Assembly (NCBI RefSeq): GCF_003334255.1
Contig: NZ_QOWU01000264.1
DNA length: 317 nt
Direction: 5' to 3' (one strand)
Source: Escherichia coli
GTDB lineage: Bacteria; Pseudomonadota; Gammaproteobacteria; Enterobacterales; Enterobacteriaceae
The number at the start of each line of letters is the position of its first letter. The stretch's first letter is position 1. Of this stretch, positions 1 through 317 are shown piece by piece. The position numbers and the translations under genes were made by a program. Under the pieces are notes generated by a model, which saw only the letters and a program-made list of their open reading frames with translations, searched no databases and was not told the origin of the DNA.

Positions 1-128
1 GCGGATCAACGCCACCTGTCCAGGCTCCGTGCGTGAAGCCCCCACCACCTCCGGCGTGGATAATGCAACCGGCCCCCGACTGGCAGACACCGCTGAACGG
101 GATTATTTCATCCTCAGAGAGCGGCTGA
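1..128 (+). CDS. Rz1: Rz1-type o-spanin (outer-membrane lipoprotein spanin subunit), C-terminal portion; 5'-partial, embedded in the +1 frame of Rz
   Basis: Frame beginning at position 3 is open to TGA at 126-128. Hand translation: GSTPPVQAPCVKPPPPPAWIMQPAPDWQTPLNGIISSSESG*. The stretch CVKPPPPPAWIMQP.PDWQTPLNGIIS matches the mature C-terminal part of lambda Rz1 as I recall it, including the penta-proline tract and the single periplasmic Cys (codon 30-32). No signal peptide or lipobox is visible in the window, so the start lies upstream. About 11 of the 41 visible residues are Pro, typical of Rz1. Confidence 0.85.
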   Translation, partial: GSTPPVQAPCVKPPPPPAWIMQPAPDWQTPLNGIISSSESG

Positions 129-190
129 TGACGATGCAGAAGCAACTGGAAGGGGCGCAGGAATATATCCGTACTCAGTGCATTAAGTAG
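1..190 (+). CDS. Rz: Rz-type i-spanin (inner-membrane spanin subunit), C-terminal portion; 5'-partial, gene starts upstream of the window
   Basis: Frame beginning at position 2 is open to TAG at 188-190. Hand translation: RINATCPGSVREAPTTSGVDNATGPRLADTAERDYFILRERLMTMQKQLEGAQEYIRTQCIK*. This closely matches the C-terminal region of phage lambda Rz as I recall it (motifs SVREA, SGVDNA, PRLADTAERDYF, LRERL, TMQKQLEG, QC near the C-terminus). Both cysteines known to be conserved in the lambda Rz periplasmic domain are present (codons 17-19 and 179-181). Identity recalled from memory, not searched. Confidence 0.9.
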   Translation, partial: RINATCPGSVREAPTTSGVDNATGPRLADTAERDYFILRERLMTMQKQLEGAQEYIRTQCIK

Positions 191-213: not shown

Positions 214-317
214 ATGAAGAAATTACTGGTAACCGTAAAACCTTTTCAGGGAACAATTCCGTTCCGTATTTTGCAGCGTGGTCGTGTTCTTGTTGAAGGT
301 TCGTTCAGTGGTAAATG
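214..317 (+). CDS. hypothetical protein, N-terminal portion; 3'-partial, runs off the window end
   Basis: ATG at 214 is preceded by the GGAGGA Shine-Dalgarno. The frame is open for 34 codons to the window end: MKKLLVTVKPFQGTIPFRILQRGRVLVEGSFSGK. MKK is a typical N-terminus. No hydrophobic stretch long enough for a signal peptide, and no lipobox Cys, so it is not Bor-like and is probably cytoplasmic. Same strand as Rz with no convincing terminator between them, so it is probably co-transcribed with the lysis genes. I do not recognise the product. Confidence 0.6.
   Translation, partial: MKKLLVTVKPFQGTIPFRILQRGRVLVEGSFSGK

Follow-up and report, generated by a model that had tools for sequence, protein, structure and literature searches.

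A penta-proline run in a nested Rz1 gene of Escherichia coli is one allele of the PPxPP-AW block of lambda-like o-spanins

The spanin genes at the locus

The window, by which we mean the whole stretch of 317 nucleotides analysed here, contains the 3' part of an Rz/Rz1 spanin gene pair of the lambdoid, Stx-phage-like type. Translation of its plus strand in three frames yields two overlapping reading frames: frame 2 is that of Rz (RINATCPGSVREAPTTSGVDNATGPRLADTAERDYFILRERLMTMQKQLEGAQEYIRTQCIK, stop at 188-190) and frame 3 that of Rz1 (GSTPPVQAPCVKPPPPPAWIMQPAPDWQTPLNGIISSSESG, stop at 126-128). The i-spanin Rz is represented by its C-terminal 62 codons and a TAG stop (2-190, plus strand), the o-spanin Rz1 by all codons that follow the lipoylated Cys, the stop included (3-128, plus strand); the window begins inside the lipobox Cys codon of Rz1 and holds the whole of its mature domain. 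The sequence-only reading had placed Rz1 within Rz, and profile matches bear this out: Rz1 matches Pfam PF06085 (E=1.2e-21, model positions 1-40 of 41) and phrog_3198 'Rz-like spanin' (E=1.1e-30), and Rz, annotated as 'lysis protein', matches PF03245 (E=2.8e-49, model positions 1-125 of 126) and phrog_13 (E=6.2e-74). Rz1 has 686 homologs, and PF06085 is found in all of the best 120 of these 686. No NCBIfam model matched Rz1, Rz or the ORF downstream of them.

Prophage matches to the window occur in 4,520 of 5,426 complete E. coli genomes; that of E. coli STEC17-183 ranks first (locus L002, 99.7% identity). Among phage records, 380 match at identities of at most 94%, mostly those of Stx-converting and other lambdoid phages. 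L002 gives Rz1 its lysis-cassette setting: genes for a class II holin and a lysozyme are followed by two small ORFs, the 152-codon 'lysis protein' (Rz, L002 3732-4190, with its hydrophobic N-terminus visible in the translation), a 74-codon hypothetical gene, and terminase genes. With terminase genes after the lysis cassette, the source prophage of the window looks intact. Rz1 is found at L002 3943-4128 as an unannotated ORF of 61 codons (MRELKMKLFALTLPLVVSACGSTPPVQAPCVKPPPPPAWIMQPAPDWQTPLNGIISSSESG), wholly embedded in the +1 frame of Rz in the coordinates of both L002 and the window. The lipoprotein start lies upstream of the window; the L002 ORF, which is the same across the Rz/Rz1 part, begins MRELKMKLFALTLPLVVSAC and carries the lipobox VSAC. 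The start of a mechanically listed GTG-initiated ORF at 33-128 was rejected as that of Rz1, since the ATG, signal peptide and lipobox lie upstream of it (L002 3943-4128).

Rz1 lacks annotation in the closest RefSeq genome (L002 3943-4128) and in most of the phage records matched, and Rz often carries the outdated label 'endopeptidase'; the under-annotation of nested o-spanin genes is systematic. Downstream of Rz, preceded by a good Shine-Dalgarno sequence (ggagga, 205-210), an ORF of 74 codons occupies window positions 214-317 on the plus strand and continues beyond the window (L002 4214-4438). It matches phrog_2571, a family of unknown function, at E=2.8e-28, covering only positions 100-172 of the 291-position profile, has no Pfam or NCBIfam match, and could represent a fragment, or else a shorter form, of some larger phage protein. 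The TAG stop of Rz (window 188-190) is replaced by CTG in phage vB_EcoS-569R3 and its relatives (L001, ON470597, 1642-1644), in which Rz runs about nine codons further, overlapping the start of the downstream ORF; this extension resembles the C-terminal Rz extension of H-19B noted by Kongari et al. A promoter scan of the window returned no promoter-like site, and a terminator scan returned one weak terminator-like hairpin (250-265), which lies inside the downstream ORF and is irrelevant to the proline run.

The penta-proline run and its surroundings

The run occupies positions 39-53 on the plus strand, with the Pro codons ccc (39-41), cca (42-44), cca (45-47), cct (48-50) and ccg (51-53), and stands in the Rz1 frame as ...CVK PPPPP AWIMQPAPDWQTPLNGIISSSESG*. 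The same bases are read in the Rz frame as gcc ccc acc acc tcc ggc, giving the residues A-P-T-T-S-G of the Rz linker. Translation confirms both the five Pro codons and the PTTS of the Rz frame at 41-52 that had been read from the letters. The window has a single match to the pattern CCNCCNCCNCCNCC, as against none in 200 dinucleotide-preserving shuffles; mature Rz1 has 11 prolines among its 42 residues, and shuffling these residues yields a run of five or more in only 1.8% of cases. The run is neither due to chance nor an effect of composition. It is equivalent to P32-P36 of lambda Rz1, for which Cahill et al. (2017) introduced the name "penta-proline (P5) stretch" within a "proline-rich region" (PMC5295617). 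The motif had been said at first sight to occur in lambda Rz1; it does, as is also seen in phage 434, and it is thus not new.

The Lys codon immediately 5' of the run (36-38) provides a KPPP context, which clusters with the strong stallers, VKPPPPPA being classed 'S' in K-12 RzoR. Immediately 3' of it, the codons for A-W-I-M (54-65) form the anchor that is conserved in homolog surveys as part of a PPxPP-AW[IVLM]M block. The segment C-V-K-PPPPP-A-W (30-59) contains the proline-rich region together with the conserved Cys that precedes it (C29 in lambda). The middle Pro codon (45-47), equivalent to lambda P34, is permissive by homolog surveys and by lambda genetics alike: many homologs have A, S, D, E, R, T or V instead, and the haplotypes described below show C, G or T at position 45.

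Two further proline motifs lie in the Rz1 frame. A di-proline in the linker, S-T-P-P-V (12-17), is a predicted weak staller (STPPV = W under the rules of Qi et al.). The second, P-A-P in QPAPDW (69-77), is PPP in lambda, 434, and K-12 RzoD and RzoR; the lambda changes P42S and P44S in this motif are lysis-defective (PMC5295617). Where these proteins have QPPPDW, catalogued as a predicted strong staller, Ala takes the place of the middle Pro both in the window and in the Stx-phage group (QPAPDW), and the free middle position of P5 seems to recur in this second motif.

Conservation of PPxPP rather than P5

The motif was surveyed in four independent samples of homologs. In the closest, the best 120 of 686 Rz1 homologs, taken as representatives of clusters at 90% identity and scored over the five residues before AW, 47 have PPPPP, 63 PPxPP, nine another single substitution, and one no motif; the PPxPP alleles of these best 120 comprise PPAPP (45), PPDPP (7), PPSPP (5), PPEPP (2), PPRPP (2), PPTPP (1) and PPVPP (1). 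A second sample of 82 loci was collected via Rz peptides outside the motif and is therefore unbiased for it; here the counts are 29 PPPPP, 45 PPAPP and 8 PPSPP. The unbroken run is thus absent from about 60% of close homologs, in the best 120 of 686 as in the 82 Rz-retrieved loci. A pattern scan of IMG/VR, conditioned on PPxPPAWxM and therefore a sample rather than a census, with a few chance matches included, gave x = A in 57, P in 39, S in 9, D in 7, R in 5, T in 2 and L in 1 among the matches listed (120 stretches). Individual phages with PPAPP include PhiR12_2 (recorded host K-12 MG1655), AU6Stx1, TL-2011c, VT1-Sakai and vB_EcoS_P32; PPPPP is present in phages 434 and ES18 and in Hafnia phage yong1, while phi467 has PPDPP and Edwardsiella phage EPP-1 has APPPP.

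Further out the pattern loosens. The 28 distant representatives, taken at 50% identity and kept after a filter on lipobox, length and lambda signal, have a longest proline run of five in 2 cases, four in 3, three in 9, two in 12 and one in 2. P0226 has RPEPA at the P5 position, predicted as weak, in an intact holin-lysozyme-Rz cassette; P0215 has no PP at all and is nested in a 176-codon Rz-like ORF adjoining a lysozyme gene. In the lambda-like group the conserved element is PPxPP-AW, and beyond that group it relaxes to a less strict proline-rich patch; the unbroken P5 is one common allele, about as common as PPAPP, and not a conserved feature. Of the initial claim of a conserved tract, the part that stands is thus PPxPP-AW; the penta-proline itself is often interrupted (47 PPPPP against 63 PPxPP in the best 120 of 686). 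The survey agrees with the P34 exception published earlier (PMC6139136), and the PPxPP pattern is therefore not new.

The library at 50% identity also contains many lambda-like Rz/Rz1 sequences with frameshifts and chimeric ends (for example P0124-P0127, P0133 and P0148), probably originating in error-prone assemblies or in lambda-derived vector or control DNA among public runs; such sequences make the family look more diverse than it is and need to be filtered out before conservation is counted. A separate case is P0088, an ORF of 81 residues in an NCBI E. coli genome, which is a natural fusion of Rz1 to Rz and carries both PF06085 and PF03245: the Rz1 signal peptide and linker are followed by PPPPPAWI and then, in frame, by the C-terminal coiled-coil region of Rz. 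Its presumed origin is a frameshift immediately 3' of P5 in a prophage undergoing decay.

The constrained reading frame

As each Rz1 codon CCN lies across an Rz codon NCC, the run could be read as a passive by-product of an Rz linker of small residues, written in NCC codons and free of selection on Rz1. Five NCC codons do read as CCN in the +1 frame, and out-of-frame genes tend to be rich in disorder-promoting residues, proline among them (Kongari 2018, quoting Rancurel; PMC6139136). We nevertheless give this reading next to no credence, for the variation within the run lies at the positions that change Rz, which is the opposite of what selection on Rz would leave. Among the 37 distinct haplotypes of the 82 Rz-retrieved loci, only positions 41, 44, 50 and 53, plus 45, vary within 39-53. 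The first four are third positions in Rz1 and first positions in Rz, hence silent in Rz1 and non-synonymous in Rz, where the residue alternates between Pro, Thr, Ala, Ser and Gly; position 45 opens the permissive middle codon. Third positions of Rz, which are second positions of Rz1, are invariant across the run in all 37. Since variation is limited to first positions of Rz and the CC of the Rz1 Pro codons stays invariant, the prolines are not a passive read-out of the Rz frame. A broad range of Rz peptides underlies the motif in the wider sample (ATTASG, ATGTSG, TSSASG, APTTSG, APITSG, ATGPTS and others). At four of the five codons it is Rz1 that is under selection, and the Rz linker beneath them is unconstrained. 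Lambda genetics points the same way: the Rz linker takes insertions (PMC6139136) and is mutationally silent where the sensitive parts of Rz1, its prolines included, lie over it, as passages in Cahill et al. report (PMC5295617).

Recoding and RNA-level readings

The C-rich tract, GCCCCCACC in the Rz frame, might itself be the functional element, as a recoding site at which tRNA-Pro slips by +1 from CCC to CCA to give an Rz-Rz1 fusion, or as a place where ribosomes stalled in the Rz1 frame block those translating Rz and so couple the two subunits. One mRNA is common to both frames, positions 39-43 form a run of five C, and the Rz frame offers a CCC-A context there (gcccccacc, 38-46); further, EF-P is reported in parts of a preprint to suppress frameshifting at proline codons (bioRxiv 10.1101/2024.09.11.612453). 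The C5 run is not conserved, however: lambda-type and PPAPP-type alleles read GCCACCACC or GCCACCGGC, with gccaccacc in the lambda type and gccaccggc in the PPAPP type, both of which lack it. Nor is there a notable RNA structure (fold z = -1.4). We know of no report of an Rz-Rz1 fusion product. From the distribution of these alleles, the C5 run is unlikely to function as a slip site, and recoding or coupling at the tract as a whole appears barely conceivable.

An RNA-level explanation was rejected more generally, as the whole window folds no better than its shuffles (z = -1.4). The proline codons include, in the 46-54 region, the sequence CACCTCC, which is the anti-Shine-Dalgarno core of 16S rRNA. 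In addition, CCTCCGG (48-54) is the exact reverse complement of CCGGAGG (203-209) at the ribosome-binding site of the downstream ORF; a pairing between the two was rejected, since it is not in the predicted fold and such a 7-mer match is estimated to occur about three times by chance in 317 nucleotides.

Predicted stalling and the need for EF-P

Consecutive prolines stall ribosomes in a manner relieved by EF-P, and both KPPP and PPPP are among the strong stalling contexts described by Starosta et al. (2014, PMC4176338); a subset of PPP proteins is unaffected by the loss of EF-P (PMC4176338). Qi et al. (2018) class every run of more than three prolines as strong (S4 Table rule I, PMC5811046) and, in their S1 Table, list VKPPPPPA of K-12 RzoR as 'S' and, for RzoD, VKPPR as W, PRPPA as M and MQPPPD as S (PMC5811046). 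Passages in the same paper state that EF-P cannot fully offset poly-proline stalling even in the wild type (PMC5811046). The supplementary tables of Starosta et al. (2014) make no mention of rzoD or rzoR.

We re-implemented the rules of Qi et al. (S3 and S4), which reproduced the published classes of RzoD and RzoR. Under these rules the window motif, which combines five prolines with Lys at position -1 and so shows both of the features of predicted stallers, is classed 'S'. The interrupted alleles are mostly predicted to be strong as well: PAPPA, as found in PPAPP alleles, is 'S', as are VKPPS and VKPPD, and only the PPRPP, PPTPP and PPVPP alleles fall to 'M'. At least one predicted strong motif is kept in 111 of the 120 close homologs (best 120 of 686) and in 21 of the 28 distant ones, the other seven of which have none, two of them lacking PP altogether. 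As interrupted variants mostly keep a predicted strong motif, predicted sensitivity to EF-P survives the breaking of the run. Frequent loss of the tract among functional homologs, which the sequence-only reading took as evidence that would count against an EF-P link, is indeed seen; with 111 of 120 still predicted to be strong, though, the predicted sensitivity is kept.

An EF-P link for Rz1 is thus chemically plausible, to judge from the motif and these rules, and the EF-P sensitivity of an identical VKPPPPPA has already been catalogued computationally, though not discussed (Qi 2018, PMC5811046). In the records covered by a full-text literature search, no link from EF-P to Rz1, to spanins or to the lysis of lambda was found; both terms occur together only in PMC11602170, a paper about synthetic translational coupling, neither of them in its title or abstract. 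The main text of a Keio-wide screen for lambda host factors by plaque assay does not mention efp, yjeK or yjeA/poxA, which is weak evidence. We expect that an Rz1 reporter would probably fall at least two-fold in an efp mutant; that such a drop would yield a visible lysis defect of the spanin type is doubtful, and that the stall itself is a selected regulatory device we regard as very unlikely. EF-P dependence, even if true, would extend well-established rules and come as no surprise. If, on the other hand, Rz1 output were to collapse without EF-P, a host translation factor would be needed for the final, outer-membrane step of lysis in lambdoid and Stx phages, and Rz1 would provide a simple system for ribosome stalling inside nested genes, of interest to both the phage-lysis and the EF-P fields.

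The role of the prolines

The regulatory reading takes the poly-proline to be a selected translational throttle, by which host EF-P tunes the output of Rz1, and with it lysis or its timing, so that the phage senses the translational state of its host. The stalling contexts and classes cited above (PMC4176338, PMC5811046) are compatible with it, as is the incomplete compensation by wild-type EF-P stated in passages of the latter paper, and most natural variants keep a predicted strong motif. The run stands at codons 33-37 of the 61-codon ORF, about 100 nucleotides from its start, and ribosomes queuing behind a stall could back up as far as the start codon. Against this, PPP or longer is often replaced and some members lack PP, which a conserved throttle does not predict; EF-P is expressed constitutively and, according to parts of PMC11611912, is backed up in E. 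coli by factors such as EfpL; some PPP proteins do not respond to EF-P loss (PMC4176338); and neither the literature covered by the search nor, for what this weak evidence is worth, the main text of the Keio screen connects EF-P with spanins. Passages in Cahill et al. also report that proline missense mutations abolish function without lowering accumulation, so that the prolines are needed in the protein (PMC5295617). Taking these points together, we attach very little weight to the throttle.

Its extension to lysis timing, suggested at the outset for Rz1 stalling, is probably wrong. In lambda the time of lysis is set by the holin, not by the spanins, which act only after holin and endolysin; the role of the holin in timing is reportedly the subject of work by Chang, Nam and Young in 1995. 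As the spanins act this late, a shortage of Rz1 is expected to give unlysed spheres rather than a shift in timing. Unlysed spherical cells are the terminal phenotype of a spanin defect in passages of Cahill et al. (PMC5295617).

A related idea, which we find far-fetched, is that in hosts with low or unmodified EF-P (under stress, in stationary phase, or in efp/epm variants) the stalls at KPPPPPA would also obstruct ribosomes in the Rz frame, so that both spanins fall and cells remain as unlysed spheres, making lysis subject to a checkpoint on host state. If true, this would be a case of ribosome collision across reading frames in overlapping genes.

In our judgement P5 is very probably kept for the function of the protein, the o-spanin Rz1, and the need for EF-P is a side effect of this. 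Rz and Rz1 are required for outer-membrane disruption at lysis, as shown for lambda (PMC5295617), where P32Q, P33L, P35H, P36Q and P36L are lysis-defective alleles of Rz1 and position 34 tolerates alanine, P34A being functional (PMC5295617). According to passages in the same paper, most lysis-defective lambda missense mutants accumulate and form complexes normally (PMC5295617), and Cahill et al. treat the region as an essential membrane-fusion motif (PMC5295617). The stretch is conserved across the lambda o-spanin family "except for P34" (Kongari 2018, PMC6139136).

On this protein-function account, Rz1 would act as a small outer-membrane lipoprotein which, together with Rz in the inner membrane, bridges the periplasm and performs the final step of phage lysis, in which the outer membrane is disrupted, probably by fusion. 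The prolines would make up a stiff, extended stretch immediately ahead of the conserved AW[IVLM]M block, required at a stage later than the accumulation and complex formation of the subunits, with positions 1, 2, 4 and 5 presumably required and only the middle one free (PPxPP). The nested arrangement would accommodate this readily: each CCN of Rz1 lies across an NCC of Rz, and the wobble base of Rz1 is the first base of the next Rz codon, such that Ala, Pro, Thr or Ser in the Rz linker leaves the Rz1 proline unchanged. A need for EF-P in the efficient translation of KPPPPPA would be a by-product of composition and not the reason for the motif, and is expected to have little consequence in EF-P-proficient hosts. 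We infer by homology that the lambda results, P5 as essential and P34 as permissive, carry over to the window allele, the block CVKPPPPPAWIMQP being identical to that of lambda in proteins that are only about 62% identical as a whole. Nearly all members are predicted to stall without EF-P, and selection on protein function and selection for slow translation would leave the same mark in such an alignment.

The P5 motif, its essential role and its permissive position are already published for the lambda family, and the window is one more allele. As it stands, the observation is of low importance.

Comparison with known systems

The closest characterized counterpart is lambda Rz1. As seen via phage 434, which has an Rz1 of the lambda type, the block C-V-K-PPPPP-A-W-I-M-Q-P is identical in the two, which also agree in where the block lies within the mature lipoprotein, in its +1 nesting over the Rz linker and in belonging to PF06085. 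They differ in the signal peptide and linker (overall identity of about 62%), in the second motif, which is PAP in the window and PPP in lambda, and in the codons of the run, CCC CCA CCA CCT CCG in the window as against CCA CCA CCG CCT CCG in lambda (from primer sequences, PMC5295617); because of this difference in codons, the Rz residues underneath differ as well, APTTSG in the window and ATTASG in lambda.

The nearest relatives at the DNA level, at 90-94% identity, are the Rz1 genes of the Stx-phage/933W group (VT1-Sakai, vB_EcoS_P32, TL-2011c and AU6Stx1), which share with the window the type of signal peptide (MRELKMKL...), the QPAPDW motif and the gene order. Their allele is PPAPP, whereas that of the window is PPPPP, the minority version in this subgroup (29 of 82 loci). 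Among the K-12 homologs, RzoR has the identical VKPPPPPA and is likewise a predicted strong staller (PMC5811046 S1 Table), and RzoD is a natural variant in the middle position, PPRPP; both are genes of cryptic prophages that were catalogued computationally, whereas the prophage of the window looks intact.

Outside the spanins, Cahill et al. drew an analogy to the PPAPPP of the reovirus p15 FAST protein (PMC5295617), a small lipid-anchored fusogen whose prolines are essential and whose third position is permissive; it is an unrelated protein of a eukaryotic virus, and the analogy is functional only. With regard to translation, E. coli CadC (PPP) resembles Rz1 in having at least three prolines in a strong upstream context and a predicted need for EF-P. 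In CadC, however, both EF-P dependence and its regulatory use have been measured, whereas in Rz1 the need for EF-P is predicted and it is the role of the prolines in the protein itself that has been demonstrated, in lambda.
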